Part shown: positions 1 to 50,139 of the stretch, in pieces
Layout: every line of letters begins with the position of its first letter
How positions within the stretch are numbered: the first letter of the stretch is position 1
DNA from: Psammoneis japonica
Lineage: Eukaryota
Assembly: GCA_008632985.1 (NCBI GenBank)
Contig: QPGO01000012.1
Coordinates: 310,001-374,000, forward strand
Direction of reading: 5' to 3'
Length of the DNA stretch: 64,000 bases
The notes under the pieces: generated by a model
The model's input: only the letters and a program-made list of their open reading frames with translations
The model's database searches: none
Told to the model about the DNA's origin: nothing
Made by a program: the position numbers and the translations under genes

Positions 1-3000
1 TGACCAGCTGAGCTGCGTGGCTCATGACACCTTCTGGGTTGCAGGGTTCTTTCACCCATGTGCATCAGAGTTCTCATTTGACATCACAAACAGGAATTGC
101 TCCTGTCATCTGGGCTGCTTTCTGTCACTCCTGCACCCATCAGTTTCCAATGGTGTGATGGTCTTGCTGCCCTGAGATGTGTGGGATGTTTTTGTTGATT
201 GGATGGCCTTGATGTTCCATGAATGAATTTGTCCACAGAATCATGGTCATTGCACCATTGACTCCCACACGTTCATCCTCTGTGCTGCTTTGGGTGTTGA
301 GCTTCTGCTGCATTTTACATGGCCTGCACTGCTCCATTGCCCATGGCCACAACTCCTCCTGTGTGGCTCTTGAAATCCAGGTGCATTGCAAATGACACAT
401 GCGCATGCCACTTGATGACTCAGAGGTTCTTCATGCTCAATGCAGCAACTTTCAGATGCTTGAGACAATGGACTGGCTTTCCCCAGTCCTTGTTGGTCAT
501 CTCACTGACTTGTGTGCACAATGCTGTGATGGTTGGGTGCACATCCATGTGGCCTCTCTTGGGCATGAGTGGTCCCTTGGCTGCCCACACACAGAATGTT
601 TTCACTTTGTCTGTTGGCAATCTCATGCTGCTGGTGTCAAATGGGTTTGCCCTGCTGGCATCATGGATGCATCTGCACTCTTGATCTCATCTGGAAACTG
701 ACCGATCATCTTGTGAATGCAGTTGGTCATGTGAACCTTTGCCTTGCACTTGTGGCTGAAGTCCAGGGTTATGTTAAGGCAATCATGCTTCTTCCCTTGT
801 GCTGCAATGACTTTCCCATGACTTTCACAAATCTTGTTTAGCCAGCTAAAAAATTTGTCATTTGCTTTGGGTTCTTGCAATCAACAACAGGTCATCCACA
901 TGGAAACGCACAGTGTGCCACTTGCCGTTGACCACTCAACTGACAATGAATGGATTGCTTGGGTTGAACTTAAACCCTGTCTTCTTCAAGTCCTTGCAAG
1001 ATTGCTTGCACCAAAGCAGAGCCACAAGCAACATGCTGCAAATGGCTCCAATGACTTGGACACAGTGATTCTCTTCCTCTTTTCCATGACCACATGTGTG
1101 GCCCATGTTGGTTGCAATCAATGATCCAGTCTTTGCCTTCCTTGGACTCTGGAATCAATGTCTGTGTAAATGCATTTGGTGCATTGGCACTCATTGTGCC
1201 ATGCCCTTTCACAGTGTCAACAATGGCTGTCATGAGGAGCATCCCTTCCAGCGATGCTGTTGGGCTGGCTCTGACTCATCCTTGTCCAGCCAATCTCTGG
1301 TTGGTTTCCCATTGCAACCATGTGCCCTTTCATGTGACCATCTTGCTTCTCCATCAGTGACATCAAGGCAATCACAGCCTTTGTCCTTTCAGTTGGAGCA
1401 ACATCTTTGACTGACATTGGTGCAAAGCACACCCTGTCATGGAGTTGTCTGGGGCCACAATCTCCTTCTCTGAGGCATCGTGCCCCCTCTGGCCAAACAC
1501 TTTGTGGCCTTCATGCATGGCAAATGCTGCTGGGCAAAGGAAGTGCCCTTTCCTGATTGGAGTTGGTTGTCAATCTCACACATAAATTGTGCCAGTGCCA
1601 TTTCTGCATTGCACTCAATGTCATCCCCTGGATTGGGACTCATGTTTGTTCATGTGTGACAGCAGCATTTGAGCCTGTTTTGTTCGTGTTCTGCTTCTGC
1701 GGTGTCTGCCACTCCTGCAAATTGAACTTTCTTCTCTCTGTGTTGCCTGATTTGATGTTGAAGGAAGCACCAATTGAGTGTTGTGCGCTCCTGGTCACTC
1801 TGCCAGGCATGACTTTTCTGCCTCTTCCTCCAATCATCTTTCTCCTTCCCATCTCTTGTCTTTTTGGGCAGGATTCATCATCTTTTTCTGACTCTTCATC
1901 TGACTCATCATCTTCACCATGTTGCTTGTGGTCTTTTTGTTCTTTGACTGCTTGGCTCTCATGCTGTTGATCGGGGCTGTGATCTGTCATCAGCCAGGAT
2001 CTTGTTTGCTTCTTCACACTCATCATCCAAGTCAGGTTTGTCTTTGTGGTTTTCATCTTCTGACTTGGTCATGCAGTTGGCATCATTGCACTTGTTTTCA
2101 TTTTCTTCTTTGTTGCTTTTGTCTTTGCTGTTGTGCAGGTTCACAGTGCAGTGGCCACCCTTGGGAATGGCTCATCTTGAAACATGGTCACAGATGTGTG
2201 CTGTCAATGCCGCACATCCATGGTGCTTGTCAGGTTGTTTTCAATGTGAGAAACAGGACAAATTCACCAAAAGCAAATTCAAAATGCTTGTCATGGTCAA
2301 GCTTTCTTCATTGCATGACAGTGTGTGAACTGTGCATGTCAGAAATTTCTTCCTTCTGAGGGTGCATGTTTGCCATGACAGTGTTCTTGATCATGGCGTG
2401 CTTGCAAATCAACCCAAGTGTCATCTTGCATGGCAGGTGGTGCACAGTGGCTCAAGTTTGCTCCTTGATGGTCTCAGTGCTCCTTGCAACTTCAGGAACA
2501 CAGTCATTGGTGTTTGCAGACATTGGGGTCACATTCAATGAAGAAGTCAATCTTGAGCAAAGCTGTGTTGTGCTGTTGCAGCATCATGTCCAGTGTGTTG
2601 TGTGCATTGACATTCTTCTTGGACCTCAGTCTCACACTTGATTGGCACTCAATCATCTTGTCAATTGCATGCAGCATCTTAAGTCCACATGCTTCCACAA
2701 TGCAAATGCAGAAGATCATGCCTTCTCTCTGTTTCTTGCGCATCTCAGGTGGGATGGTCACAATGTCATTCCTCTCATTGGAGCAACACACATGTTTGGT
2801 CTTCCCTTTTAATGCATCTGTTGGTGGACCCCAAATGGCCACCATCCTCTCCACATCTTCAGGCATGATGGACAAGACCTTTGCCTGATTTGATCATGGA
2901 AAGAGCTTGAAATCCCTCACACTGGAAATTCCAGCTTTGCAGCACACTCTGAGTGCTTGCTCAGCATTTGCTGCCTCCCTCTTGGTGCAGCCTGGGGAGC

Positions 3001-4760
3001 TCTGCTCCACCATTGGAGCTGCTGCAGTTCCAGATGTGCTCTTGTGTTTTTTGTTGCTCTTCTTCTTCTTCTTCTTCTTCTTCTTCTTCATCATCATCAT
3101 CATCTTCTTCTTCTTCTTTGACAGCATGCTGACATGTGACTTGCTTTCTTGGAGATCTTTTGCATGGTCAAAGAACTTCTGGCTTGATGCAAAGGCATGC
3201 AGCCCACAATGTTGTTCACTCTGAACACTGCAACTTGTCTTCTAGTTCTCTTGTCTGGCAGCTGGGGCTCATCCACCATTCGCTTGTCACATGTGACACA
3301 GCACTTGCTCTTTGCATCCACCAAGCTGAGGACGTTGGCCATCACATTCCATGAACTGAGCTTCACATCCCCCCATCCAGGCATGACACAGTTTTTGTCT
3401 GAAAAATCCACTCCTGCATTCATGGACAGACCAATCTTGATTTTTGCTGGCTGCACATTGTGCACCAATCTCCAGGTTGCTGTCATGCTGAGGGTGGAAC
3501 CATTGTCAAGGGTGCCAACATCTTTGTTTGCTTGGCCCATGCTTGTGTCTGATCTCTCATTGTCAGCTGCAATGATGCAGTGCTCCTGCTTTGACTGGAG
3601 TGGGTTGATTGGTCAGATCTGGTGATGTCAACACTGACATTGTTGCCATCCACCAAGGAGGCATCTTCATCTCATGTTTGTGCAAGATTTCATCCCCTTG
3701 TGTCCAGCTTCTTTTTCTAATTCTTGAGTCTCATTGTTGTTGTTGTTGTTTTTGTTGTTCATGCACTCACTGTTCCTCTTGTTGCACCTTTTGTGAGAGG
3801 ATTGTTGTCTTTGGAGTGGCCCAGTGGTGCATCCATTGCCTGACCCAGGGTCTTTGGACAGTTGTTTTTGCCAAGGCTGCAGTTCCTCACAAACTCTTCT
3901 TTGCACTCTTGCAATGGCAATTGCTGCTGTTCTCTGTGAACAGGAATGTTGTCCATGTCTTCAATGTCATCTCTTTTGGCATTCTCTGGGCTGGCAAAGC
4001 ACCGTCCTTGGTGCTCCTTGGCATTGGAAACAAGTCCATCTGGCATTCCATCTCCAAGACCTTTGCTTGCAACATGTGGCTGATTCTTGAATCTTGACTG
4101 GCAGTCATTCAGTGACTCATTCTCTTGTTGTTTCATGTCCAGTGTGTTCTGCAGGGACTTGGTGAGTGCACAGAATGGGTTTCAACCTTCAACAGCTTGG
4201 TTGGGTCATCCCCTGCTTGGGTGACTGGGATCACCTTGCACTCTCTGCTTCATCAGCTTGTGGTGTGTCAGTCATCTGCCTCACTTTGTCATTGCACTCA
4301 TGTGGCTCCACTCAGCACTGGCATTCCAGCTTTTTGTCTTCTTGCCATTTCTTTTCCAGCTTGGTTGGGTGATCCGCAGCTGTCTCAGCTGCTGGTCTGT
4401 CATTGTGGACATGTCTGAGGTTGGTTTCTCAGAAACACAGTCCTTGCATTTCAGTGTTTGAAAGATCTCACCAAATGCATGCCTTGTGTGTGCACTCCTT
4501 CTGCATGTGACAGATGATCTTCTCCTTGATGTCTTCACACATTGCATTGTGAGTGTTGCCATTCAGTGATGAAGGACAGAACTTCATCTCAGGCTGAAAC
4601 ACTTCTTGGCATTGGTCTTCTTCTTCTGGTTCTCAGAAGACCTGCGACTCTTGTCACCTCTTCTGCAACCATGTCCTTGGCCTTGGTTGTCAGATCCACC
4701 ACTTCCTCTGCCACTCATTGTGCAGGCACTCAGCACTCAACCAACTGCGGGTGAAGCAGT
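1..4760 (-). mobile_element. Highly degenerate Ty1/Copia (CoDi-like) LTR retrotransposon relic (gag-protease-integrase-RT-RNase H fragments)
   Basis: Minus-strand fragments in Copia order: gag-like (3600-4560), protease-like LDNGSTLS (~3500), integrase-region EDVERMVAIWGP..ALKGKT (2504-2875), RT-like fragments (~620-1430, e.g. LKKTGFKFNP) and RNase H ILWTNSFMEHQGHPINKNI (140-406). Many frameshifts; LTRs not identified. Confidence 0.8.
3058..3119. repeat. Compound trinucleotide microsatellite (TTC)n(ATC)n(TTC)n
   Basis: Directly visible; reads poly-K/M on the minus strand inside the Copia relic. Confidence 0.9.
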
Positions 4761-5479
4761 GTTGCAAAGCACCAAACATGGTGCCAGTGGCGGCTCTTTG
4801 GAGTGAACATTGAACCAGCAAGTCAAGGTCACCAAAAGGGAATCCTGTTGGGCTTCCTGTGCTGCTTGCTTCTTGTTGCTCTTGCCTTGGCCACATGCAG
4901 TGGCCATGGGTTGCCCAGAAGTTGTGGATGCAAACTTGTGATGCAACAGACACCCAGTGGCTCCAATCAAGAAAATTGCACCACAAACCAGTGATTTGCT
5001 TCACAAAGAATGAGATCAGCTGAAAGGTGAGAAAGATCAATGATGATGAAATCCTGATCACAAAGAGTCACTGAATCTGTCATGTCAGGAGCCATGGCAT
5101 TTTTTCTTCAATGCATCTTAATCTGGGTCTCTCACATTTCCCATCTTCTGAATGTTCCAACAAGGGGAGGATGTGCCCCAGCTGTGCACAAACCAAAGTG
5201 TGCACAAAAACAGCATTTGTGCAATTTTTGCACAGTCGCTGACTTTGGCCAAGCTTTTGCCACCAAAAGCACAGATTTGTCCAAATGTTTGTGTTTTGCA
5301 ACACTGACAAGACTGTCACATTGGTGTTGCAACATCATCATTTTTGTGCTGTCAATGTTTTTCATTCTTGCAACAAACCATCTGCAACACAGAAGAAATC
5401 ATGTTGAAGCTTTGCAAGCACCAAATGTTTGCACATCAACATGGAACACTCATTTGTGATTCTTTCCAGCAGGCATTCT

Positions 5480-6549
5480 GTCAGTGAAGGCTTCATTGCA
5501 CCCAATGCAATGTCGTGCAATCAGCACTGGCTCTGCTGGGGAATTTGTGATGAGGATTTGAGTGCCACCAAAAAATGTCATTTGACTGTCCATGCTCTGG
5601 ACACCTGTGAAAGCCCATCTGCACAAGCATTTTCCATTGGCACTCTTCATGCACAAGCAACACATGTCATTTGTGTTCAAATGGAGTGTCATTTTGTGCA
5701 TCACCTGGGGCTGCAGCACATCAGAGAGGCCACAAGAACATGTCAATGATGAAGAAGTGTGCTCCTCTTGTTGCACTTTTTAGAGCCCTTTGCTCCCAAA
5801 TCACCCACACATTTCCTGGGGATCACCCAACAGTGTGAGGGGATTGCCCAACTGCCAGACCCATGTGGGAGCTCTCTTCAAAAGAGCACCAGCTCATTTT
5901 TTTTTCCAGGGCATCAGAGCATGGTGTGGTGTCACCTGTTTGTTCCCATGCTTCCCCTTGTGTTTTCTGGAGGTTTTTGTCACAGAGTGCAGGTGGCACG
6001 AGCCACAAGCCAAAGAGCTCCCCACAGACTGGCTGCAGTGGACAACATGTGTGCTGGCAAGAAAGAGTGAGAAGAAGATCTCAGAGAGATCGTCATGTCA
6101 TTTGCCTGCACATTTGGTGCCAGGTTTCAAGAAAGAATTCCAACAGCATGTTTAATTGTCAGATTTTTGGCAGCCTTGCACCATGATTCTGTCGAGTTTG
6201 GAGGTGCATCGACTGTTTTGAACCGTCTTTGCCTGCCGACGACACTTTATTGACGCATCCTCCGACTCGCACATTTAATCATATGCAGACAGGTGGCCAC
6301 ATGGCCACTGCGCTGAATGCGGGCCGAACTCATCTAGTTAGGTTGAGCGCATTTTGCAGATAAATTGTGACAGCATCATACTTTCTTCTACTGCCTTTAC
6401 TTCTATTCCCCTCTACCCCAGAGCTGCTTCTAGCATTGGAACCGAGGATGTCCAACAAAGAACCCCTGGCATACGATCATATCTCAACAAGCTGCCCTAA
6501 CAGAGGTGGTCACGAGGAAAGTTTGGCGGAAGCTACAGGGGCATTAGGT
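5480..6549. repeat. Partial spacer/3' flank of the kinase tandem unit (copy 1)
   Basis: Homologous to ~26790-27975 and ~52790-53998 (e.g. caatcagcactggctctgctggggaatttgtga...; catgtttaattgtcagatttttggc). Confidence 0.9.
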
Positions 6550-9060
6550 TCATGCACCGTCGACACATGCTGCGATAGTGGACTTCATTTTCCAGTGACG
6601 AACAGTCGAAAGGTCAATGCCGAGGAGCACCAAGCTCGCGCTAGGTCTGTCTTTGTACTCTTTGCATAATTCTGAGAGCTCATCAATGGTTGTCTGTCGG
6701 CGATAATCAAAAGCCTTGTCTCCTTTTCCAAGTCTCGCCTTGAACTCGGGCCATGGAACTGGGTTTTGTTCACGCAACGCGTACACCGTGAAAAGCAAGG
6801 ATGCAATGTCATGCTTGGCTGAGGGCTTCCAGGACTGTTTGTTAGCCTTACCATGAACCTCTGCGTGTGCAAATGGAAGCGATCCACGGAAGCCAATTGC
6901 ATCTTCATTTCCCAGCGCCGCACACCCCCAGTCAATTAGAATGAACCTAGCACCGTCAAACATGACGTTACGTGGCGAAAGATCCAAGTGGTAAACATCC
7001 TTTTTGTGTGAGAACGACAAAGCATTTGACATATCCGACCACAATGAGAGCAGAGTCTGTGATTTGTTAGGGCTCGACATCAAAATGGTAAGAGCTGGTC
7101 TGCCTCTCGGAGTCATCAACAAGGCAGGAACTGTGGCTGTCGTGTCTCGAACCAAGTATTCGACGAGCCCAAAGCCTTGGACTTCGGGGATGTACTGGCA
7201 TGTTCCGTACCGGGCCAAAGCACGAAGTGCCATGAGCTCTCGCTCTATTTGTCGTACTTTACCATTTGCAGACGCTTTTACAAATATTTTGTTGTTGTCC
7301 CCAGCAACCGCGTAAACAACGCCATGTGAGCCAGAGCCCAGCAGCTGACCAACTGAATGTCGGACAGAGACCCCGTTTGAGCTGCGTTTTCCAATAAAGG
7401 TTGCGCTTTGTGCCTCTGAACCAAAAAACGATATGCCAAGATCCTCATCCTCTGAGTGTAGAAGCTCCCACAAGCGACGCATGCCCTCTGGTACATGAGA
7501 GCCAGGGGCGGAAAATACACTCTCTGATGAGAACAGTCGAGGCTTGAGATATATCTTGTCGGAGTTATCAGTAACAAGGGCGTCGAAGGCAGCTTCATCA
7601 ACCAGAGGCCACAATGCAGTCCGATTGAACTTCAACTCCGCACCTGCGGTCCCCATCCCAACCAACTCCAAGGATATTACCTGAAGGTAGACTGGCGTTA
7701 CTATCAAACCAACATGTTTTGAGTTGACGCCTACATCCCCAATGTCAAAGGCCACCAAAGCCCTTTTTGCCAGATGCCCGCAAACTTGTTTTGATACTTG
7801 GTCGTGCAAAACTTGAGCATTTTGACCCGCTCGACGAACGTTCTTGACCTCTTTGACCAACGAAATTTCCTGATTCAGCAGCACAGGTGTGAACGGATTG
7901 AGGTGGTTGGACTCAAAGTCGACAAATCGTTTTGGACCCAACTGAGATGGAGGCATGTAGCGCTCGCGTCGTAGGTCGGATCTGCCATGCAAAGAGCCAT
8001 CACTGTCTCGAATCTGAGATAAGGCACGGAGAAGTGCACCAACGATCGGCTGGACAGCATCTTTCTCTGTCGCAACGGCAGTCGGGAAATGTTTTTTAGA
8101 AAAAAAGCGCTCGGGCTTTTGGTCTGCCCACTCGAGGATCGCCTTTACAGTGTTGTTGACAAGTGTAGGCCTTTTTTTCAACGCCTTGGCGTCGACCTTC
8201 GCTGACTTTTCGACCAGACGGCACCAAGCCTTGGAAAAGAGTTCAAGTTCATCGGTTTGTTGGGGTGCTTTTGATGGCCACCATGGTTGAATTTGTTCGG
8301 ACGACCCGAGAAAGTTATGCAGGTTTTCTTGTGACTTTGATGGACTCGGGATGTGCAGGCCTCGCATCATTTCGCGATAGTCGCTGTCGGATATCTCGTT
8401 TTCATCATCTATTGTACGTGTCCCCGTTTCAGTTTTGTTCGACAAAGCAGCATATGCTTTCAAATCATCGCGAATTTCCTTGATTTTGTTGCATATTTCG
8501 TCGATCGGGATTCGGCACGTTTCGTCATACAAACGATAAACCCGCTCCCAGCAAAACGGGGACTCCTTCATCATCTGATGGTTTTCGTTGACCCAGTTCT
8601 GCAAAGGAGACACGTCAAGGCCGAGATAAGTCGGTGATGAAGGTCCAAGTGGGCCTCTACGCAGCGTTTGAAGAAGCTCCTCGGCAATTTCCGGAGTTGG
8701 CGCTTCTTCGGATGCCACCTTGCCGATTGCTGCAAGCGTTTCACGAGCAGTCTCCTGTCTATTTTTCCAAACCGCCAGCGTTCCGACCATTTTACGCTCC
8801 TCCAATTCGTTGAGAAACATAATGCTGCTACTCACCCCCGATGTAACCACGCCCGCTTCGTCGGCTTTGCGCTTCCTCGCCGACGCATTAGCAGCAACAT
8901 GACCGATACTCGGACGATGATTGGTTGAATTCGCAGCTGCGTCGTCGCCGTTGCCCGCCGCTGCGCTGCTACTGGACGGTTCTATTAGCGCCGCCGCTGA
9001 GGCAGCCATTAGTGCTGCTTCCTGGGGAGATGAAGAATCCACAGGCTGGATCATGGCCAT
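6550..9060 (-). CDS. REase-fold + protein kinase protein (Crinkler/CR-effector-like), copy 1, intact 836 aa
   Basis: Kinase motifs GSGSHGVVY (Gly loop), FVKA (beta3 Lys), RE (alphaC), HLDLSPRNVM (catalytic loop), IDWG (DFG), GSLPFA, HDIASL. Upstream TEKDAVQ..RERY..FVDF..KEVKN..KQVCGHL matches the PD-(D/E)xK pattern. Normal TpA/CpG content. Confidence 0.9.
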   Translation of the reverse strand: MAMIQPVDSSSPQEAALMAASAAALIEPSSSSAAAGNGDDAAANSTNHRPSIGHVAANASARKRKADEAGVVTSGVSSSIMFLNELEERKMVGTLAVWKNRQETARETLAAIGKVASEEAPTPEIAEELLQTLRRGPLGPSSPTYLGLDVSPLQNWVNENHQMMKESPFCWERVYRLYDETCRIPIDEICNKIKEIRDDLKAYAALSNKTETGTRTIDDENEISDSDYREMMRGLHIPSPSKSQENLHNFLGSSEQIQPWWPSKAPQQTDELELFSKAWCRLVEKSAKVDAKALKKRPTLVNNTVKAILEWADQKPERFFSKKHFPTAVATEKDAVQPIVGALLRALSQIRDSDGSLHGRSDLRRERYMPPSQLGPKRFVDFESNHLNPFTPVLLNQEISLVKEVKNVRRAGQNAQVLHDQVSKQVCGHLAKRALVAFDIGDVGVNSKHVGLIVTPVYLQVISLELVGMGTAGAELKFNRTALWPLVDEAAFDALVTDNSDKIYLKPRLFSSESVFSAPGSHVPEGMRRLWELLHSEDEDLGISFFGSEAQSATFIGKRSSNGVSVRHSVGQLLGSGSHGVVYAVAGDNNKIFVKASANGKVRQIERELMALRALARYGTCQYIPEVQGFGLVEYLVRDTTATVPALLMTPRGRPALTILMSSPNKSQTLLSLWSDMSNALSFSHKKDVYHLDLSPRNVMFDGARFILIDWGCAALGNEDAIGFRGSLPFAHAEVHGKANKQSWKPSAKHDIASLLFTVYALREQNPVPWPEFKARLGKGDKAFDYRRQTTIDELSELCKEYKDRPSASLVLLGIDLSTVRHWKMKSTIAACVDGA

Positions 9061-9223
9061 GGTTTAATAGCCCTGCTCCCTACTTGGAGAGTGGAGAGCT
9101 GTCGAAATTGAAAATGGAATCAGCATGCGCGTGGAGCGCGCGCGTGGAGCCACTCTTTCGACTTCCGAGTTTTTCGCGAGACCTGGAAGTTTTCGTTTTT
9201 CAGGCACGTCGTGTCGTTCGGTC

Positions 9224-9449
9224 CGAGTAAATCTAGCTGCCGGATGGGCTCAGCCACTCACAGTCTTAGCATGATAGCGCGAATACAACTAATAAGATGC
9301 TTCTAGGCCTGTTGCAACTACAATGGATGCAACAAGTGAAGACCATTCTGCGGTCATCGGCGTGTCACCCCCTGCGTGCCACATCACAGTTTCTCCACAG
9401 CACCTCCTGGAGCACACTGGGCAGTCCCTGATGCATCGGATTTCATTCG
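9224..9449 (-). repeat. 3' LTR of Copia element
   Basis: Direct repeat of 15871-16094. Confidence 0.92.
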
Positions 9450-9634
9450 GTCCCCTCGAAATGTACCTGACTCGTAAGGCGCAATTCGATCCTATGTTGT
9501 GTCAGTGGTCCAACCCAAACAATCTTGACTTGTCGATCGATGTAAAAACCCTTGCTGGGGAAAAGCCGCCAATTCCTGAGCATGGTGCAAACCCTCGCTG
9601 GGGAAGAAACTCACCACCGCTCCACACATCCATC

Positions 9635-12600
9635 TCAATGCGTGAACTTGTCTAACAGAAAATTCCGTCTGACAGACGACACAACCTTTGTGAACAGATC
9701 GCCCAGGTTTGTCTCTGTTCCCTCCTTTGCAATCCTGACAGTCCCCGCAGCAACGGCTTCGCGGTTGCGGTGATGTGCAATGGAGTGATGCTTCTTCTTG
9801 AGTGTAGACTCAGGAACAGAGCAATTCTTGTAGATGGCCTCATTGTCACAGAAGACATTTGTTGGCCCTTTGATCGGCACCCCAAACATTCGAAGCTTGC
9901 ACCGCAAACCCTCCACGAGCTCGATGGCATTCTTGAGTGCGACGATCTCAGCCCCAAATGTGCCAGCCTCCACGGCATTCTGACGCTTCGAGTGCCACAC
10001 GATGGGTGCCCGATTGATGAACATCAAGATGCCTGTGTGGCTGCGATGATCGGCAACATTTCCGGCATGGTCAGCATCCACAGAACAATGTGTCGACACC
10101 ACATTGCCTCGAGCTGGCGGTGCATTTGTCGGAATGGCTTCTCTTGCATCTCGGCAGAAGTCGTGCCAGTCGCATTTCACGAATCGCGATTCATCGATCT
10201 TGGGATGAGCCGGATCAAATGCCGCTTGGCGCTTTGGAACCTGTTTGAGGTGTGCAAAGACATGCAACACCTGTTCCAGATGACCAATGTGAGGAAGAGC
10301 GAGGTGAGCACACATTGACGAAACCTCCAAATGGATGTCTACTCTGCCGAGTTCCACAGCCCAAACCAGCACACCAATCAGCTCTTGACAGCAGTGAAGT
10401 CCTTCAGCATCCAACTCACCAGCAGTGTCTGGCTCGGGTTTGCATCCACTGCTCAGTGGGGTTGTCGCCTTGCTTTCCCCTCCTTGCCAAGCCTGTCCTC
10501 TACATTTTGGACAGCGGCCTTGCAGCACTTCTCCGCAGACATTGCCCAACAGGTGGTCCCATCGGCTAAAGTCATCTTGGAAAGCGCAGCACCGAGATGA
10601 GAATCCAGCTCGGCTGCCTTGTCACCCTTGAGCTTGAACTTGGACCTGATGCCATCCATCGTCTTCATGGGTTCGTGACCAATCGACAGCACATCGTCCA
10701 CATAAACTAGAGCACATTCGCAGCACTCAAATCCGTCGGGTTTCACCGCAGGTCACATCCATGCATCCGGATCAGCCTTGCTGCCCTGCAAAAGAACTCT
10801 GGAAAACCAAATTTACGTAGAAGCAGTGCCAGGGACCCTGTGCAATTGCCAAAAAAGTCCGGAATGTCCAGAAACTGCGCAGAATCCAGTGTAGAATCAG
10901 TGCCAGGGATGTCAAAAAATCACGAAATTCTGGACTTGTTTGGTGTTTCTACAGGGGACCTGGTGCTGCTTCTACGTAAATTTGTCATTCCGAGGGGGGC
11001 AGCTTGCTCGGTTTGTGCCCTGGATCATAAAGCGTCTCCGCTGGAAATGCCCTGAACGCTGCTCCGGAGCTCTTCAATCCACACAGGGCTCTGACCACAA
11101 TCATGATGCAACCTTCATCCTTGCCAAACTCGGAACCTGCTCTGGTCCAAATCTTCTCCCTGCAAGGGGCAGCAAGGTGGGCGTTCTGGGTGTCACATGC
11201 AAAGACTTGCAAGTCATTGAGTGCAGCAAGCGTCAGTGCAATCCTCACCAAATCCCAAGAGACGACAGAGGAGCAAGTGACATGTGTGGGGGGTTCAGTG
11301 GTGTGGCCTCCAGCCACCATGCGAGCTTTACGGCGGAAGTTTTTTCTCCCAATTTGATGTCAAAAATCATGTGACACTTCACTTCCTGGAAACCAGGTGC
11401 CATGTCCTCAAGCTCCCCTTCATGCTTGTCAAAAGCAACCCACACATTCTTCATCTCCATGCAAATGGCATCCCACCATAGGGTGTTGCCATTTGCGCGA
11501 TCGATCTGGATCGCCTCCTCGACACTCTTTGGGATCCGCATGCCAAATTTGTGTGTCCGAAGCCAACACTTTGACTTGACCTTCGCAATGGAACGCTCAC
11601 GGGTTTTCATGACATGAGGGACCCACCAAGCAAACGCTGCCTCATTTGAGATCTTGCGCTGAATGGCAAACTCGGCAACTTGGACTGGGAAGCTCTCCTT
11701 TGCAATCTTCAAGTCGATCCAAGTCGTGCTTCCATCCTTCCATTGGAACAGGAGTTCCCATCCTTTGGCAGTCTTGCGCCTCTTCCGAACGCCTTGCTCG
11801 GTCTCAAAGAATTCGGATTCAGGAACGTCCCCGTTGGCACGGCAATCAACGATCTCATCAAACAAGACATGCCGGTTCCCGTCCTCGTCAATCTGAGCAA
11901 ACACATTCATGACGATGGAGTTAGCAGAGAGCGCAGCATGGTGCCCATCAGGGTGCTCTACCTCATACATCCTTGTGTCAAGGATGGGATTGTCATTGGC
12001 TGTTCCTGTTGGAATGCCATTGGCATCTCTCAACCTCTTCGTGACACAAGCAAACTCAGGACCATTGTCATCTCTTGGAAGCGCAACTTCCATGTTAAGG
12101 CATCCCCAGTCCACCGCTTCCGGTGAGGCTTCCTCGTCTTTCTTGTCGTCATCATCATTTGTCACCTCCTCTGAGGACATGACGCGATCACACTCATCGA
12201 GGAATTCATCGTCGCATCCAAGGCAGTCTTTCCAGTCTTCGGGACCAATCTTGCAATCCTCGTCATCGGGGAAGTCTTGCTCCTTCAACCGGCGCTTGAT
12301 CTCCTCGTCAAAACTGTCAAACTTTGCCTTTTTCTCTTGAGCAGCGGCTTCTAAATTGGTGACTCGTTGAACAGAAGTTCTCGAAATAACACTGCCTGTC
12401 TGTGTCAGAACGCAGTGCGACATGAGACTCCCTGTTCTGTGAGACACACCAAGCCACCTACCGAGCTTCTCGTCCCCTGGACCGGCATTCTCCCTGCACC
12501 AAACCCAATCATAAAATCCAAAGTCAAGGCACTCCGAGATGTCCACGGTCTCTCCGAGAATGTTCTCTAGTGGCACTCCAGCATCCAAATGATGTGCTCC

Positions 12601-14114
12601 AAGGAATGTGCAAGACATGGTCTCACATGTCCATGTAAATCCGCAGTCCCACAGTCGCCGCGGCACTTGCTTCTTGACCATGATGTGGAGCCACTTGCGT
12701 CCAACCTCGCGCACAACTCCTTCCGCAGGATTCTGGTTGTGTCGATCGGGTTCAATGACATGACAATCTGTGCTTTCCTTGCGCACGGTCTTCATGAACT
12801 CCGTGCCAGGTTTCGTTTGCTCCTTAGATCCATCCATCAGGAGTTTCTCTGGCACGCCAAATTCCTGGCAAAACATCTTAAGAGCCTCGCCAGCCTTGCT
12901 CTTCTTGTCCATGGGATAAATCGCAGCGAAGTGTTGCTTGTTTGTAAAGATCTGGGCATGTCGAATGCCCTCCAGCGAAACCACCTTGCCATCAACCGTG
13001 TCGGTTGCCCATTCACCCCGTAACCCAGGCTTCGTGAACATCCGATCGGCCCGATGGCGTCAACCCATTGGCATCAACGCTGACCTGATGAGCTTTTGCG
13101 TGGTCTTCTTGAGCGTGCTTGCTGCTTGCTTGAGTCCCATGCACCATCGTTCACTTGAGTCAGCAGCCGATGCATCACTGTGTCTCTCCTTGGACATGAA
13201 TGTCTTTGGGAGTGCTGAGTCTTCAGGTCCTTCTCCGATTGTTTCCGTGGCGGAGACCTGGACTGTTGACTCCGATTCCACATTGACGGCAGCTGTGAGC
13301 CTTGATTGGACTTGATTGACCCCACAAATGAATTGCTCATCGCAACAGTCCCGGATTGAGGGTTGCTGTGGGCAGGATCAGCTTTGAACTCATGTGTCAG
13401 ATTGGCGTGGATCGTCGCAATCGACCGAACTGGCTCCATTTCCTCCTCCGCAGATCGTCGAGTTCCAATGGATTTGGACTTGACGGTCTGTGGATCCCAA
13501 GGTTGTTGGGAGGTCATCTGGATCTTGGGGCACTCGTGCAATTCCTGCTCTGCAGGAGTGCGAGCAGCCGCAACAATGTTGGTCCCCATGGCTTCAAGTG
13601 GCATCATGAAAGATCCATCCTCCGCAAGGATGTGCAGTGGCGAATCGGAGCAGGGATTGTCCTGAACCTCAACACCAAAGTGCCGCAGCTGGTTTGGGTT
13701 AACCAGCAAGTGCTCCATGGAATCCGGCATCCACAAGCCCTCGTGGAAGACCAGAATGAATGTTGCTCTCGATGTCGGTGACGTCCACGCCGTGGCTGCC
13801 GAGACAATTGGGACACTCTCAATGGAATCGCATCCCTCGTTAAAAGGCGACACGTCACATTCTCGTCCAGAACAACCCAAGAGGGTAAAGTTTTGACCAA
13901 AAACAGTGGTGTCAGCATGCGAATCCAATTCAAGGCGTCCATGCTGTGCCTTGCTCATGTCACGGATGTGAGTGATTTGTGTGGTGTCAGACCGCGTTGC
14001 CGAGACACGCCGTGTCAAGGCAATGACCTCACAAATGCGTTTGTCACAGCCACGTGGATGCTGTTCCTTTGATCGATGCAGCTGTCCCCCACTCCATTGT
14101 GGCAACCACAACAA
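9635..14114 (-). pseudogene. pol: Copia pol (protease-integrase-RT-RNase H), frameshifted and MITE-interrupted
   Basis: LELDSHADT (protease), WATDT..MDGSKEQ..QNPAEGVVRE (integrase DDE), CHMIFDIK, ALCGLKSSGA, LVYVDDVL (RT), VDADHAGN..RSHTGI..FCDNEA..DLFTK (RNase H). Confidence 0.9.
10781..11002. mobile_element. 222-bp MITE inserted in Copia RT
   Basis: Termini CTGCCC...GGGCAG; duplicated CTTG on both sides (removal restores KPSKAD); subterminal inverted repeat caaatttacgtagaagcag / ctgcttctacgtaaatttg. Confidence 0.8.
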
Positions 14115-14146
14115 GAAGTTTGTGATGCAACAGAGCAGGGTCCAGC

Positions 14147-15580
14147 TCAGCAGTCATTTGTTCTTTCCTCTGCGCTTTTCACTGCGACCACCGAATGCGT
14201 CTCCGGCATTGTCTCCGTCTTCACCGCCAGCCCTTGATTCATCATCGCCAGAATGGCGCTGGCATTAGTGTTCAGGGCAGAGATTTTGCAGTTCGCTTCT
14301 TTAAGCTGCGACGACAGCTTCCAATTCTTCTTCTTGAGCAACTTAACGGATGCAGCACGGCGTTTGGTTGGTTTGGGTTGTTTGGCAATGCCCAGATGCA
14401 CGCGCTCGTCGACAACCTTCTGTTTGTCCTCCTCACTCAACTGGTGCCAAGTTTTGTGGCATCCAGTGTTGATGGATCCATCCTCATTGTAAATGGTGCC
14501 ACCCTCTTTTCCTCCTCCAGAGGCGACTGCGGCAATCGCACGACGATGCGCAATCGTCTCTGGAAGGGTGGCGACTTTTGCAGCAAGATGATTGGCCGCC
14601 GTGGTGAACGTGATGCCTCCTTCAAACTCATTCTGTGCCTTCAAGGTCTCAACTGCGGCTTGCAGTGATTGGTGCTGTGTCTTCTCAAAAAGAATCCGCA
14701 ATTTCTGGGCCTCCATTTTCGGTTCGTCGTTCTCCTCAAAAATGTCAAACATTTCTTGAAGCTTGTTGACAAACGACTCAAACGGCATGGCGCGTTCACT
14801 CTTGCAATGGAGGGTGTTCTCCATGCGCTCGGCTTCAGAGATGTGGTGGGAGGCATTCCCTTCTCCCTGGCAATGGTCACACAACGCTCTGAAGTCAACT
14901 CGTCCGTTCTGCTCATTCTTGTGGTCTTTCAACCATTGCTCACTGGGTGTGCCCGTGGTGAGGGACTCGATGAGCAAATGAACCGTACGAGTGTCAGCCT
15001 CGAAAGCTGGGCCTTGGAGGGGTGCACATGCAATGCACTTCTGGACAAAAGTGTTGTGGCCTTGAGGTTCAGGTGCATCGTTTTGACGTGTGCAACACAC
15101 TGACGGCACGCCAGAGACTCCTGGCACAATGCCGAGCATGTTCGTCAAGCCAGTGCTCCACTTGGCCCAATCCTTTTCACTCTCCAACATCCCGGGTGAT
15201 GCCTCTTTACTGAGAGAGTCAGCAGTGGTCTTGGTCTGGGAACGGATCTCAGCACGACTGAGTGCCGTCTGGAGAGCAGTGCGGAAAGTTGCCTGGTCAA
15301 GCCCATCCAGAGCAGGGTTCTCGCTCACACGACCAAAGTCCTGCACCCAATGGATGAGAGCTTTGAGCCGACGACTGCGGGCCAAACCAAAATGAATGCG
15401 CCCTTCAGCAACCGTCCTCCCAGTGTGCGATGACGCAAGAGAATCGATGTCTTCTTCCTTGAGGTCTTCCAAATCGTCAAAAGACGCAAAGTCCGCCACA
15501 AGCGAGACTCGTTGAGCTGGATCAACAAATCCGATCCATTTGAGTGCTGTCTCGACAGGATCCGGAGGAGCAGCCACCAT
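14147..15580 (-). pseudogene. gag: Copia gag-like ORF (477 aa)
   Basis: Lies 5' of pol inside the LTRs; NGRVDFRALCDHCQGEG resembles Copia gag with Y->C/H changes; only one Tyr in 477 aa. Confidence 0.8.
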
Positions 15581-15870
15581 GGCAGTGCCTGCACCAGTGG
15601 GAAAACAGAGCTGTGTGAGAAATCACAAATTGAAAAGGATGTCTCGGTCTGTGTTGACGACAACACACAGCCATTGGAAGCATGGAGACTGGCCGTGTCT
15701 CCTCACTGCTTGTGCACTCGCTGATGCCAGGCGACGACAATCATCACACACCCTTTGATCGACCGGCACTCGTCGTCACAACCCTGCCATCTTGGTGCGA
15801 TCGTCTCTTCACAGTTGTTCAATGCTTTCCATCAAACTAAACCTGAGTTGACGACTTGGCTCTGACAAAG

Positions 15871-16094
15871 CGAGCAAATCTAGCTGCCGGACAGGCTCAG
15901 CCACTCACAGTCTTAGCATGACAGCGTGAGTGCAACCAATGAGATGCTTCTGGGCCTGTTGCAACTGCAACGGATGCAACAAGTGAAGACCATTCCGTGG
16001 TCATCGGCGTTGCCCCCTGCATGCCACGTCATAGTTTCTCCACAGCACCTCCTAGAGCACACTGGGCAGTCCCTGATGCATCGGATTTCATTCG
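15871..16094 (-). repeat. 5' LTR of Copia element
   Basis: Direct repeat of 9224-9449, followed on the minus strand by a PBS-like sequence. Confidence 0.92.
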
Positions 16095-16730
16095 GGTCAG
16101 GGCATTTTTTTACCTGGTGTGGGCAACAGGTTTTGATTAACTCGACTCGAGCGAAGCGAGAGTCAGTCAGCTCGCAAAAGTAACCCGGATGTTGAAGTGG
16201 GGTGAACTGAACAACTGCACAAGCACTCATCACCAAGCTGCATGCTGCATCTTGAAGAAACAGGTGGAAGGGATGAACAAAATTCCAAAAGAGGAAAATT
16301 ATCAGACTGCTTTGGGCGCCAAAAGCAAGCAGCTGAGATGCTCTGCACAGCACACCCCAGCAAGAGCTCATTGCCAACACAGCAAGCCAGCTGAGAAATT
16401 TTGCATGTTGTCCATGACTTGAGCAGCACCCTGCAAACTGCAAAGCATTCTCAGCACCACTTTGGGGTTTCGCCCAGTTGTTGTTGAGAGCTGCCTCACA
16501 AAAAGCTGCTTCAGCACTTGTTGCGGAATCTCCAAGCAGCACAACAAAAGCACTCCTGGAGCTTGCTGAAGATGTCTGTCTGCTGCTGTGCACTGCTTCT
16601 GTCAAATGAGAGCACAAGTGTGCACTCCATGACCTCTTTGCAGATCTGGAAAATCACCTCTTTGCAGCTTTCACAAGGAAGGAGCTCCCCAGCACAATGC
16701 TTTGCAGAAGCACCAAGATCATGAACAAAA

Positions 16731-16755
16731 GCAGCAGCAGCAGCAGCAGCAGCAG
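16731..16755. repeat. (CAG)n microsatellite
   Basis: gcagcagcagcagcagcagcagcag visible directly. Confidence 0.85.
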
Positions 16756-18329
16756 AAAGCAGTGCTGTGTGTTGGAGCAGCAAGAAGCCAGAGCAACAAC
16801 AAAAAGAAAAGACAAAAAGTGCAGAGGCTTGCAGGGGCGCAGCATCTGAGGTGGCCAGAAATGATCTCCAGCATGTGCCAAAGCCCAAGGTGGGCAGCAG
16901 CAGAAGCAGGGCAAGAAAACAAAGGCTTGCTTTTACAAGGGTGGCATGAGCAAAGTCAAGAAGCCATGCAGAGAGAAGCACTTTGTGCAGCCTTGGTGCC
17001 AGGCAGTGGCTCAGCTGTGCTGCTGGCAAGCTCATGGCTGCAAGAGCACAGCTTCTGGTGTTGCCAACTCAGAGCACTTTGTTGCAGAGTTGAAAAGCAA
17101 AATGCTTTGAGCAATGTGCGCAGCATGGTGGCAGGAAGAAAGTGGATGAGACAAGCGCTTGTGTTGCAAGAGATGAGGAGGTGGGAGACACTTCAAAAAA
17201 GAAGAAATGTGACAATGGAGAGACAGCAAAACAAGCAACAGCTGACAATGGCAATTCTTTCTGCTTAGAATGCCTTCACATTTTCCATGTTCACTGTCCT
17301 GGTTGCTTGCGTTAGACTGGTGACATTTGCACAAGATCTCTCATTTCTGTGCAGGCGCTGCACAATGGCGGTTTAAAGCTGTGTTTGACTAACTTGATTA
17401 AAATGACAAAAGGGCAATGTGTGATGACTTTAAAATTTATCCCCTCAAGCAAGCAACTGTTCGCCCCTGTGTGCAACACAACCTTGTTTTGTCCTCCCCC
17501 ACATGTGCGGTGCAAAATTTGTGCCGCACACAAGGAGCAATTGCTCAACGGATGACCTTCCACATCAGCGTTGTTGTCATGTGCAGTGTCCCACACTGTT
17601 TGACGACCTGCCGTTTGGTCACGCATTGGCCCCGCTCCTTGAATCGCATGCATCGCGCATGATGCACACCGATTCAGACCTCTCATGCTTTTCCCCCACC
17701 GAGCTTGAATTGGACTGACGGCATAAATCTTGCGGTTGACACAGAGGTTGTTCCTCCTTGAAAGTGAAAAAGCGCCAAGTTCAATGGTTCTTGTTGAAGC
17801 TGACATGCAAACATTGGGTGTTTGTGGCGGGAAAACTTGCGCAGTGTCTACGCGTGTGCACTGTGGGCGATGCACTCAGTGCATTTCCACATCTTTTCTA
17901 CGTGTGAAATCGTCACAATTGCCCGGATTTATTTCCATCACCCAGAAATGTTTCTTGACAGTGCAACGCGGTCAGAAGTTTTCACGCCTTGTTGTCGTGT
18001 TGTTGTTGTGCACTTTCCGAGTGGCAGCAAATGAAACAATTGTTAGAAGACGAGCCAATCAAACCCTAGAAAAACAGCACAAAGCACGTCAAGTGCAGCA
18101 GAAGACGAGGATGTGTTGACAATTGTGGCTCTTGAAGAGACAAGTTTTAGCAACAAAGCAGTGCCAAAAAGACGTCACGTGCATTGCCCACGATGCACGT
18201 CAGCAATTTTGGGCGATCTTTGAATTTCGCGTGTTCATCGTGCGCGATGCACACCGGGAGCGGGGTTGGGGCCCCACCGCCTGGTGCTTTGAACTAAACA
18301 CCTTGAAGTGCAGGCATCTACAGCAAACA

Positions 18330-21300
18330 GCGCGCAACCGTTTGAGCGACTTTTTTCGGCAGCTCACGCGTCCGCTGTGAGATTTTTTTCTTTTCTTTTT
18401 TTGTTCCATCAAGGCTAAGTCAGCATCCATGGCGGTCATTTGCCGCACTTTGCATCAACATGTCGCACCACACCAACTCAAACCAACACAGCCCTTTGGC
18501 ATTTCACAATGACGTGATCATGCAAAGAGTCCGTCTCAGTGCGTGGCCAGTGCTGATTCCACCGCAGTGGCCTTGGCACAACACTTGCTGCAGCAGAAGC
18601 CAAGAGTTCGCCAACAAGCATTGCAAGCTCTGCTGATGATGGGCATGAGGACAAGACCAGGTGGGACCTCACACTGCTGGGCTGTGACACATTGACAGTT
18701 TTTTGAATCGCGCCGCGCACGCACATTTCTGCATGATTTTGGTGACATTTTGTGCCATTTTGTGGCACAATTGTTGGGCAATCCATTCAACAACTTTTGA
18801 CATTTTTTCCTTCTGCACCATTCTCAAATGTCTCAAGAGTGGTGCAGGGCAGACGGGCTGTCCAAAACTTCAAGCAGGAACAGGGACACATGCACCACAA
18901 ACTTGGTCATTCATTTCATGTCAGAGATGAACATGTCCATTGGCCAGAGTGCAAACTGCAGAGCTTGCGCACAGAATTCTGTGGGGCAAATGTCACAAAA
19001 AGTCCCACCCAGGGCTGGAACATGTCTGCTGAAGAAAGACCACACAACCCATGTGCCCGTTCCATGACGGAAGAAGCAATCCATCGAGATTGATGACAAT
19101 GACAAGTTGGAGGGCATTGCTTGGGTTTCCTCATGACCACCCAAACTCATCAAAGTCATGGAGGTGAAGGAGCCTCCAAAGGATGTGAAGGCTGCCAAGA
19201 AATTTGGCTTTGTGCAAAATTGGCATGGAGCTCTGCAAAGCTCATGCTGCATGCAACACTCTTTTTTCACAGTGTGAACTGGCTCATTCCTGCCTCTCAC
19301 AAGTGCACCCCACTGCAAAGAATGTGAAAAAGTTGTCAAAGCAACTCGACACTGTGAAGTCCAGGATCAACAGATTGCAACATGATGTCAACCACAAGGA
19401 CACCTCCTTGCAATCCAAGAAGAACACTGGCAACAGCCTCAAATCTTTGGTGGTGGAACACAAGAAAGATGCATCAGAAGTCAACAAACTTTGCAATCAA
19501 GTGTCCAGCCTTGAAAAGGAACTCCAGAAGAAAGAAGCATCAGACAAAGCTTCAGTTGAACATGCAAAGATGGTGAAGAAGAACCAAGAGCTCCAAAACA
19601 AACTTGCTCTCCAGGAAAGCAGAGCTCAGCTGTCAGAGCAAGCAGCAGAGAACAGAGCATGGCAGTCATCCAAGCCAGCAGACAACAGGCATTGCTCAAG
19701 ACAGTTCCACAGCAGCTCAATTGGGTTCATCTCAGGAGCTTGGGGTGGGAGGAGGAGCACCAGACCAACTCAAAAGTTGTTCCACAACCACTCATCCAAA
19801 ATGTTGTTGTTGCCAGCAACATGGATCTGTGCATTGTCACAAACAAGCACAGCACAAGGCTTCAAAAAGCCTGACACAATGGCCTTTCAACAGCAATGGA
19901 AAAGTCCACAGAATCATTGGCATCTTTGTTTGGACAGAAAAAGGATGGGTTGGTGGACTGGTCAACACTTTAGAAGCAAACAACATTGCAAACATTGCAA
20001 AAGTCAGAGTCCACAGCAATGGATGGCATTTCTCCTGTGAGTGGGTCACATCAGATTTTTGGTTGAATGGCTCTGTTGCCTTGAGAGATTTTTCATTGGC
20101 AAACTTGATGCACCAGTGGTCAAGTTGCATGATCAATCGAAGGAATTCAATGGCTCTTTCAACATTGTCAGGTCTGAGTTCATCAACCGGGACCAAGCTT
20201 GGTTTCCTCAAAGCAGCAGAACATGGAAAGCCACAAAGCAACACACGAGACATTGTACTTTGTGACACAAGTGATCCAGTGCAACAAAAGAGTTCCATCT
20301 GGTGGCTTTGCAGTGTTTGGGAAGGGTTCTTGCGACAAAGTGCAATCAAGCAAACAGTGTTGTCCAAGCCAAGCGTCAGTGCTCTTGCTCCCCTGTGTGT
20401 CTCAAAGGCTTTTGACAGTGAGGGTCAACAAGCCCCTCTTGACTCTGAAGCTCCATGCCAACCTTCTTGGCCTGCTTGTCCCTGACTTTTGCCACTCATC
20501 CAAAAGCTCCACCTATGACCGCTCCAGCCCATCCTTGTTGCAGTCACACAGCTCCTGCCAATTTTGTCTTCTTCAGGAAGTTGCAGGGTGTGCCATTTTG
20601 ATGCACACCACCATTTGCATTGTGGGACAGTCCCAAGGTGGTGATGGCATGCAAAGAAATGTGCCAGTCACAGTGTCACCCCTTCAAAACAACAAGAAAA
20701 AACAGCACTTTTTGTGCAGACAATGCTGGTGTCTTGCCAACAAATTTGAAAGCTTTGAAGCAACAATGTTGATGTTGAAAAAAAGTGACAAACAATGAAT
20801 GCCTTTGATGGAGAGAAAGAGAGGCTGCATTGTGACAAAAAATGGCAAATGACCGCCATGGAGGCAGAATTTGCCCTTGGTTGTCAAGACCAAAAAAATT
20901 GCAACGACATGCAGGAGCTGCAAAAGTCACTCGAATGGTTGTGCGCACCGATGGATGACAGGTGTCTGTCGGGGCTTTGTTGCACACAATGCACTGTTGT
21001 GCAATCAGCACTGGCTCTGCTGGGGAATTTGTGACACCTCCCCCACCCCTGTGACACTTTATTGACGCATCCTCTGACTCGCACATCTAATCACATGCAG
21101 ACAGGTGGCCACATGGCCACTGCGCTGAATGCGGGCCGGACTCATCTAATTAGGTTGAGCGCATTTTGCAGATAAATTGTGACAGCATCATCATACTTTC
21201 TTCTACTGCCTTTACTTCTATTCCCCTCTACCCCAGAGCTGCTTCTAGCATTGGAACCGAGGATGTCCAACAAAGAACCCCTGGCATACGATCATATCTC

Positions 21301-21364
21301 AACAAGCTGCCCTAACAGAGGTGGTCACGAGGAAAGTTTGGCGGAAGCTACAGGGGCATTAGGT
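18330..21364. repeat. TpA-depleted spacer of the kinase tandem unit (preceding copy 2), with ~0.8-kb deletion near 21050
   Basis: Colinear with 24300-27975 and 50140-53998; jumps from ...ggaatttgtgacacctcc... to gacactttattgacg. Confidence 0.9.
18650..19019. mobile_element. ~370-bp MITE-like element with CCAGGTGGGAC inverted ends (also ~24452-24823, ~50456-50830, ~58530-58909, 58929-59303)
   Basis: Ends ccaggtgggac...gtcccacc(c/t)(a/g)gggctgga; related sequence recurs in both orientations at 58530-59303. TSD not resolved. Confidence 0.55.
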
Positions 21365-42010: not shown

Positions 42011-42139
42011 CCTCATGCTTGACAACATTCAGCAGGCAGGAACAGGCTCTGTTTCTCTGATTGAAGCAATGCCAGAGGATTCTCAAAAGCAAATGATGCA
42101 TCAAAAGTTGTTGTTTGTGAGTGTGCATCATCCTTTTCA

Positions 42140-50100: not shown

Positions 50101-50139
50101 CACAAAATTTCAACTCATCATAAATGCTCAAGTGCACGG

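Follow-up and report, generated by a model that had tools for sequence, protein, structure and literature searches.

The closest system described so far is the TpA-specific hypermutation of the chlorarachniophyte alga Bigelowiella natans, reported in a preprint (Mettrop et al., bioRxiv 10.64898/2026.01.13.699255). In mutation-accumulation lines of B. natans, 230 of the 231 mutations in two hypermutable regions were A>G or T>C, those all on TpA, and the targets were an integrated giant-virus region, single-copy and transcriptionally silent, and a virophage region. The rate was approximately 1000 times the background, with only some lines affected; in the genome, TpA-poor clusters rich in CpA and TpG were enriched in reverse-transcriptase and DDE domains, and the enzyme suggested is a DNA adenosine deaminase resembling ADAT2 that RNA or the epigenetic state would guide (bioRxiv 10.64898/2026.01.13.699255). 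Our search of the full-text literature on TpA-loss hypermutation, which did not cover subscription journals, returned only this preprint and nothing for diatoms. Here we analyze a 64-kb stretch of contig QPGO01000012.1 (the whole stretch is hereafter called the window), which holds five tandem copies of an intronless kinase gene, all on the minus strand and 95-98% identical over 2.5-3 kb, as well as a copia-type long terminal repeat (LTR) retrotransposon, a GC-rich element and further repeats. We find in it the marks of a mutator that is real, directional and regional, acts in place and is not triggered by homology. It would convert TpA into TpG or CpA, i.e. A into G at 5'-TA on either strand, by regionally targeted hypermutation, most likely through adenine deamination in DNA. 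Its direction, dinucleotide specificity, locality, indifference to repetition and action in place after insertion can all be read in the window.

The DNA of the window falls into two kinds. Outside five islands, TpA occurs 245 times in 48,162 bp (observed/expected ratio, o/e, of 0.08), and inside them 489 times in 15,835 bp (o/e 0.50), the TpA-poor DNA having CpA and TpG at o/e up to 2.0. Each kinase copy lies within one of these TA-normal islands of ordinary composition, which measure roughly 3.3 kb (Table 1), and a TA-normal zone of ~240-700 bp extends upstream of all five copies, irrespective of the sequence there. The copia element and the GC-rich element have lost TpA (o/e 0.07-0.22) and kept most CpG (o/e 0.6-0.92), the respective values being 0.07-0.19 and 0.6-0.8 in the copia internal region, and 0.14-0.22 and 0.67-0.92 in the GC-rich element. 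As in B. natans, long-term TpA depletion is accompanied by CpA and TpG enrichment, and the process is confined to foreign or mobile DNA next to ordinary host genes. The depletion is however deeper here (o/e 0.00-0.2 over tens of kb, against 0.45 in their virus region), what has been struck is retrotransposons, one small DNA transposon and unassigned repeats rather than a giant-virus insert, and the carrier is diatom-like, judging from the element proteins, rather than a chlorarachniophyte.

Both TpA (o/e 0.00-0.09) and CpG (o/e 0.04-0.34) are depleted at 1-6000, 19000-21000, 25000-27000, 42000-46000 and 51000-53000, with CpA/TpG at 1.7-2.0 times expectation; GC stays at ~46-49% in these stretches because the two losses cancel. 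The TpA that survives outside the islands is not randomly distributed: TTAA is kept best (o/e 0.29), then CTAA/TTAG (0.17/0.18) and CTAG (0.11), and ATAT, GTAT/ATAC and ATAG/CTAT are nearly absent (0.01-0.02), so that Y-T-A-R contexts are seemingly disfavored by the mutator. Sites with CA in one copy of a repeat pair and TG in the other agree with this preference, as they would, if the ancestor was TA, mostly derive from GTAC, GTAT, ATAG or ATAT.

The direction of the change is a loss of TpA, from A:T to G:C on both strands, and was polarised in two independent ways, by paralogues and by an outgroup. The paralogues inform on kinase copy 4, whose 3' end carries a 428-bp insertion. When sites where at least three other copies carry TA are taken as ancestral TpA, copy 4 has lost 16 out of 70, 10 to TG and 6 to CA. 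The losses amount to 12 of 15 sites within 356 bp left of the insertion and 3 of 4 within 250 bp right of it, and to 1 of 51 further into the gene. Twenty-seven changes are specific to copy 4 in 46100-47700, three of them C>T and 24 A>G or T>C (16 at TpA, 5 at CpA/TpG, 3 elsewhere). The conversion of TpA to TpG or CpA on either strand and the extreme GC-ward bias are thus those of B. natans, but the TpA specificity is looser here (16 of the 24 A>G or T>C changes, all of them there). The outgroup is given by 25 copia homologues: at the 15 columns with at least 60% Tyr among them, the element of the window has Cys five times, His four times, and Phe and Tyr three times each, and in the same alignment it has kept conserved Phe at 16/20, Trp at 15/16 and Leu at 20/24 positions. 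Tyr makes up 0-0.6% of the element open reading frames (ORFs) and 1.9% of the kinase; the median of the copia homologues is 3.6%. The two strands are about equally struck, by the counts of Tyr changed to Cys or to His as by those of TG and CA in copy 4.

The insertion itself has terminal inverted repeats of ~16 bp, imperfect and differing only at pyrimidine-purine steps, and looks like a small non-autonomous DNA transposon. On the minus strand at 9635-15622 and 30884-38600, the eroded elements have retained ORFs of 330-850 aa that are almost devoid of Tyr and without Pfam match. Such long ORFs persist because TAA and TAG stops disappear when TA is lost and no new stops arise; an open frame is therefore no sign of an intact element here. 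Pfam scans gave no match for the eroded ORFs of the copia element, for the long minus-strand ORFs of the GC-rich element or for those of the a-units (see below), a sub-threshold V_ATPase_I being the sole hit across the three, and TpA erosion is probably the reason for this silence on the element ORFs.

The kinase copies show where the mutator has not acted. The first-pass annotation had described them as largely unmutated, upstream DNA and the internally deleted copy 3 included, and this is confirmed by the ancestral TpA sites kept: 54/56 in copy 1, 54/55 in copy 2, 28/29 in copy 3 and 54/56 in copy 5. Since copy 2 with its broken frame, the deleted copy 3 and non-coding upstream DNA are spared as well, protein-level selection cannot explain the sparing, as the annotation had also argued. 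In copies 2 and 4 the site of the copia insertion is empty (in copy 2 between 24028 and 24029), which makes this insertion younger than the split between copies 1 and 2. The right LTR of the element, from a pair without transversions in 227 bp, has nevertheless lost 7 of 11 TpA, and the repeat B1 of the GC-rich element, from a pair with two transversions in 444 bp, 13 of 16, compared with 2 of 56 in copy 1 and 1 of 55 in copy 2 over a longer time. The a-units were copied in the same duplications as the kinase genes. Units a1 and a2 differ by 25 transversions in 2538 bp, the same count as copies 1 and 2 (25 in 2972 bp), but a-units share no TpA, and a1 and a2 differ at 45/59 CpG-type sites versus 14/190 for the two kinase copies. 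Because kinase copies and a-units, equal in copy number and age, have had opposite fates, sequence repetition is not the trigger; in B. natans, a single-copy target is hit.

This sets the process apart from two better known ones. Repeat-induced point mutation (RIP) of ascomycete fungi is likewise a genome defense that leaves transitions at one dinucleotide across mobile elements, and its mutations can spill over into a few hundred bp of neighboring sequence. Yet RIP makes TpA from CpA and lowers the GC content, whereas here TpA is destroyed and the mutated elements are not AT-rich; and RIP is triggered by duplication, whereas five nearly identical kinase copies remained untouched. The contrast with homology-triggered RIP drawn in the first-pass annotation is therefore upheld. 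The decay of methylated CpG in silenced transposons resembles what is seen here in that CpG changed to TpG or CpA is concentrated in element DNA, as in the a-units, but such decay cannot remove TpA, is slower here than the loss of TpA, and is separable from it (B1, GC-rich element). The tenfold faster CpG decay in a-units than in kinase copies suggests that the TA-poor domains may be methylated domains too; this decay, which goes alongside in the older parts of the window, is a further difference from B. natans. Ordinary CpG/CpA deamination with a chance pattern was considered first and dropped.

Borders between struck and spared DNA can be located in repeat pairs. The copia-type element lies on the minus strand at 9224-16095, 160 bp upstream of the ATG of kinase copy 1 and in the same orientation, and has LTRs of 227 bp. 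Between it and the gene, at 9064-9223, there is no CpG decay and a single TA>TG change relative to copies 2 and 4. Aligned over 227 bp, the two LTRs (9224-9450 and 15871-16095) are 90.7% identical and have 25 pyrimidine-purine sites in total. At seven of these (9228, 9275, 9284, 9290, 9293, 9304, 9319) the left LTR has TA and the right one CA or TG; TA is found in the right LTR only at two (16032, 16053) and in both at two, six CpG are common, three were lost left and three right, and two sites read CA in one LTR and TG in its partner. Beyond such sites, a single transition and one small indel separate the LTRs, without any transversion, which means that 17 of the 18 substitutions are at TpA or CpG-type sites. 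In the outer part of the left LTR (9224-9323, U5 side) 0/13 TpA/CpG sites were lost, versus 8/13 in its counterpart (15871-15970), and in the remaining part (9324-9450) the left LTR lost 5/10 and the right one 2/10, both CpG. Two earlier observations are thereby reproduced: the LTR end near copy 1 keeps TA lost in its twin, at the seven sites between 9228 and 9319, and the outer half of the other LTR keeps TA lost in the first, at 16032 and 16053. In an exact test over all 3003 arrangements with every cut point scanned, 58 were as extreme (58/3003 = 0.019), a nominal value, as the pattern had been picked by eye; by TpA alone the split is 7:2 and segregation is perfect at 2/36 arrangements. Within the left LTR, CpG losses end at the same border as TpA losses. 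From 9200 into the element, TA declines gradually, with 7, 2, 3, 1, 1, 0, 2, 0, 0 and 0 per 100 bp. Over its whole length the right LTR lost 7/11 TpA and 3/12 CpG.

The second pair consists of the repeats B2 and B1, which align over 444 bp. B1 falls within the GC-rich element, B2 beyond the terminal repeat Y of that element, and TA in B2 faces CA or TG in B1 at 13 sites, the reverse at none (binomial ~0.0002). That B2, near the ATG of copy 3, keeps TA lost in B1 had been noticed before, and the count of 13 to 0 for a repeat that starts 137 bp from this ATG bears it out. Ten of the 13 sites are in 29658-29830 and three beyond, up to 30006. Three TA are common to the pair, four sites read CA in one member and TG in its partner, and there are five CpG-type differences (three lost by B2, two by B1), so that 26 of the 29 substitutions are at TpA or CpG-type sites; the background is three differences, and two transversions in 444 bp. 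B1 has lost 13/16 TpA but only 2/31 CpG. The arrangement B2-Y-B1 is not a canonical LTR layout, and the B pair is not proven to be twins of one insertion. In the terminal repeats Y and Y', two sites near both repeat ends have CA in one and TG in the other, i.e. both copies were changed.

Table 1. Positions in the window of the kinase copies, the TA-normal islands and the repeats and elements discussed.
Feature	Position	Strand	Remarks
Kinase copy 1 (c1)	6550-9063	-	intact ORF of 836-837 aa, Pkinase domain
Kinase copy 2 (c2)	21365-23877	-	frame broken after 304 codons
Kinase copy 3 (c3)	28274-29524	-	internally deleted, ORF of 415-416 aa
Kinase copy 4 (c4)	46931-49492	-	C-terminus replaced by read-through into the 428-bp insertion
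Kinase copy 5 (c5)	53999-56512	-	intact
Native upstream DNA of copy 1	9064-9223	-	reaches the insertion point
Island 1	~6100-9330		holds kinase copy 1
Island 2	~21000-24300		holds kinase copy 2
Island 3	~27500-30100		holds kinase copy 3
Island 4	~46900-50200		holds kinase copy 4
Island 5	~53500-56900		holds kinase copy 5
3' LTR of copia element (left)	9224-9450	-	end at 9224 confirmed by family contigs with loose ends there; polypurine run next to 9451 (read by eye)
Copia internal region	9451-15870	-	gag-like, integrase and reverse transcriptase/RNase H ORFs in pieces
5' LTR of copia element (right)	15871-16095	-	
Unit a1	18329-21042		duplicated along with the kinase genes; further copies at 24300-26862 and 50141-52864
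Repeat B2	29658-30101	.	starts 137 bp from the copy-3 ATG; 16 TpA kept
GC-rich element	30121-38777	-	bounded by 238-bp repeats Y (30121-30358) and Y' (38540-38777), 97.9% alike
Repeat B1	30355-30798	.	within the GC-rich, TA-poor element
Insertion in 3' end of copy 4	46587-47014	.	428 bp, CpG-rich (51 CpG, 4 TpA), perfect 8-bp direct duplication
Mutated flanks of the 428-bp insertion	46231-47261	.	insertion at the center

The asymmetries of the LTRs and of the B repeats would be local borders of this targeted hypermutation. Mobile elements and other silent DNA would be struck in place, with the slower CpG decay alongside, and the five kinase genes with a few hundred bp on each side left untouched. 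The spared side of such a border would then hold the outermost 100 bp of the copia 3' LTR and the whole of B2, and the mutated side their partners. We consider it probable that this border is that of a chromatin domain, between silenced element DNA and gene island, its position varying from ~100 bp inside an element to ~350 bp outside; the enzyme, its guide and gene activity as the setter of the border are what we infer. Unlike in B. natans, the borders are resolved here to ~100 bp, with the genes spared.

Several points weigh against this chromatin-border reading. A role of the kinase genes in setting the border rests on two cases in one window, and gene DNA is mutated beside the copy-4 insertion, so that proximity to a gene is not protective per se. 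The LTRs are not proven twins: a target-site duplication of the copia element (5 bp in Ty1/copia elements) was looked for and not found, and the DNA on its right does not carry on from the empty site (the score of their alignment was reached by 985 of 2000 shuffles), for which reasons the element may have arisen by recombination between two copies. We compared the letters of the LTR family in 250 contigs of the runs X1 (244) and X2 (6) aligned to 8800-9800, which show this family to be highly repeated. Among the variants listed, TA is held by 38%, 48% and 51% of the family depth at 9275, 9285 and 9305, which are thus polymorphic in the family, as subfamily variants would be; at 9290, the T of the left LTR is found in ~3% of the depth and C in ~97%, and TA may there be a gain rather than a retained ancestor. 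Polarising the LTR sites by majority rule was rejected as unsafe, because a pervasive directional mutator shifts the family majority too, and it is at other places of the window that loss was told from gain, rather than at the individual LTR sites. Finally, TpA and CpG losses are not parallel in B1 and the right copia LTR, and the GC-rich element keeps CpG at o/e 0.67-0.92 where TpA is at ~0.15. The guidance by heterochromatin or DNA methylation that the first-pass annotation proposed has to be divided accordingly: 5-methylcytosine is weakened as a direct guide, because TpA loss is faster than CpG decay and not proportional to it, while silent chromatin, or an RNA guide, stays compatible with the separable losses.

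The border might be governed more specifically by the promoters, open chromatin at active kinase promoters excluding the mutator and distance to the promoter being the controlling variable, which we regard as possible but doubtful. It accounts for the sparing of the two element ends turned toward a kinase ATG (the left LTR, 161-260 bp away from that of copy 1, and B2, 137-580 bp away from that of copy 3), for the TA-normal zone upstream of all five copies whatever its sequence, and for the common border of CpG decay and TpA loss in the left LTR. But there are only these two cases, in which the direction alone has a chance of 0.25, and the spared distance is unequal, ~260 bp at copy 1 and at least 530 bp at copy 3. 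Promoter activity is moreover an assumption, given that copy 3 is deleted, that its native upstream sequence is missing beyond ~25 bp from the ATG, and that the frame of copy 2 is broken. The spared outer half of the right LTR is ~5 kb away from the nearest kinase gene, and at the copy-4 insertion the situation is the opposite, with mutation running from the element into gene DNA. Of the protection next to promoters claimed in the first-pass annotation, the sparing of both ends facing a kinase ATG thus stands; the promoter as its cause is one of two equally good readings of the two cases, the other being a domain centered on the element, and neither rule is universal, as the copy-4 overshoot shows.

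Under this other reading, the outermost LTR parts escape regardless of genes, because the struck domain is a heterochromatin core or the transcription unit of the element, from R-U5 of the 5' LTR to U3-R of the 3' LTR. Transcripts of LTR elements extend from the R region of the 5' LTR to that of the 3' LTR. We hold this reading to be rather unlikely, despite the complementary mosaic in which both inner LTR parts are mutated and both outer parts spared (U5 side in the 3' LTR, U3 side in the 5' LTR), the position of B1 inside the GC-rich element and of B2 beyond its terminal repeat, and the undecayed upstream DNA of copy 1 past the LTR end. Slight support comes from the TA held by 38-51% of the family depth at the three U5-side sites, the share expected if one LTR per pair loses TA. 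The spared state of the right outer half depends however on two TpA sites, with 2/10 sites lost there; the mutated zone overshoots the copy-4 insertion by 100-350 bp; and the double changes in Y and Y' are near both ends of these repeats. A transcription unit as the target also fits poorly with the hypermutated virus region of B. natans, which is transcriptionally silent (bioRxiv 10.64898/2026.01.13.699255).

It is unlikely that no positional rule exists at all and that differing histories (non-twin repeats, a recombinant element, copies of unequal age) plus chance created the asymmetries. The missing target-site duplication and unrelated right flank of the copia element, the unusual B2/Y/B1 arrangement, LTR differences at family-polymorphic sites, and an LTR split of 7:2 with perfect segregation in 2/36 arrangements would all be expected from such histories. 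They do not account for the 13:0 of the B pair on a background of three differences in 444 bp, for the copy-4 burst, which is polarised, sharply local and of a history known from four paralogues, or for the left LTR border common to TpA and CpG sites.

Purifying selection on kinase proteins and regulatory DNA, preserving TpA under a mutator that acts everywhere, is very improbable: copies 1 and 5 are intact, with a ratio of nonsynonymous to synonymous substitution rates (dN/dS) of 0.58 between them, but this constraint is weak, the TpA kept in the broken copy 2 (54/55) and the deleted copy 3 (28/29) largely refute such a reading, upstream non-coding DNA, the LTR end and B2 are spared too, and coding DNA of copy 4 is mutated beside the insertion. 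The least credible alternative is editing of element RNA or cDNA before integration, which as ADAR- or APOBEC-like hyperediting would also give clustered transitions in retroelements, with a 5' U preferred by ADAR (as cited in the Discussion of bioRxiv 10.64898/2026.01.13.699255), but is ruled out because both strands are equally struck, non-element flanks are mutated and two LTRs differ that such editing would have left identical, the change therefore having been made in chromosomal DNA after integration; or else a sequencing or assembly artifact, compatible with the occurrence of just 45% of sampled words of 6500-16200 in the best run, but disfavored by 30 contigs of X1 and one of X2, among the 250, that are at least 99% alike to the stretch, and by an X2 contig matching 8933-9042 without difference.

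Regarding the identity of the elements and genes, the copia element has direct LTRs and the ORF order gag-integrase-reverse transcriptase-RNase H, and a motif like a primer-binding site and a purine-rich motif were read by eye. The ORF of the integrase region has 488 relatives, the named ones being reverse transcriptases of the diatoms Fragilaria crotonensis and Nitzschia sp.; the copia relatives carry RVT_2 and their Atlas clusters are commonest in Bacillariophyta. The kinase resembles, by Atlas features, the Pkinase_fungal (FunK1-like) and DUF6826 kinases, multicopy families in rotifers, fungi, haptophytes and plants, and its nearest database proteins are unnamed and only 46-62% identical. 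A scan of metagenome contigs for related kinase loci, with a single protein and with alignment A2, found no relative.

A stretch of 2.2 kb of unique DNA (16096-18328) separates the copia element from a1, in the place where the upstream DNA of copy 1 would be expected to continue, with small bumps of TpA and CpG at ~16000-16300 and 17200-18700 and one frame that encodes a Gln run. Upstream of copy 5, an array of ~335-bp repeats that are 88-96% alike occupies 57124-62460; its sole TpA is a shared TTTAAAT, and CA/TG double differences are many. It was tried as a comparison of copies proximal and distal to the gene, but all are already TA-free, and one site favors the proximal copy.

By the sequence evidence presented here, the process in the window would belong with the TpA-specific hypermutation of B. 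natans, first described in 2026, and add another alga to it. A TpA-specific mutator is otherwise known from this one 2026 preprint and one organism (bioRxiv 10.64898/2026.01.13.699255), and the interest of the window is in its intensity, which is near saturation, in the new host lineage and in the natural experiments on targeting that it offers: repeated genes that were spared, a dated insertion mutated beside unmutated paralogues, a polarised burst around a small insertion, and repeat pairs struck on one side. We tentatively propose that a diatom-like alga could have a TpA-erasing hypermutation of the B. natans kind, far more intense, as a transposon defense targeted to chromatin or transcript domains, with borders ~100 bp sharp at gene islands; it would be an AT-to-GC mirror of RIP, found in two distant supergroups and separable from cytosine methylation. 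In this genome, dating by LTR divergence would overstate insertion ages many-fold, because nearly all substitutions of the copia LTRs and of the B pair are at TpA or CpG-type sites, and domain searches fail on eroded elements, whose long ORFs persist although the elements are dead. If a defense with such sharp borders exists, the former end of the silent domain is written in the paired repeats of individual elements, and should the borders track chromatin state, past silent and active domains could be mapped from sequence alone.

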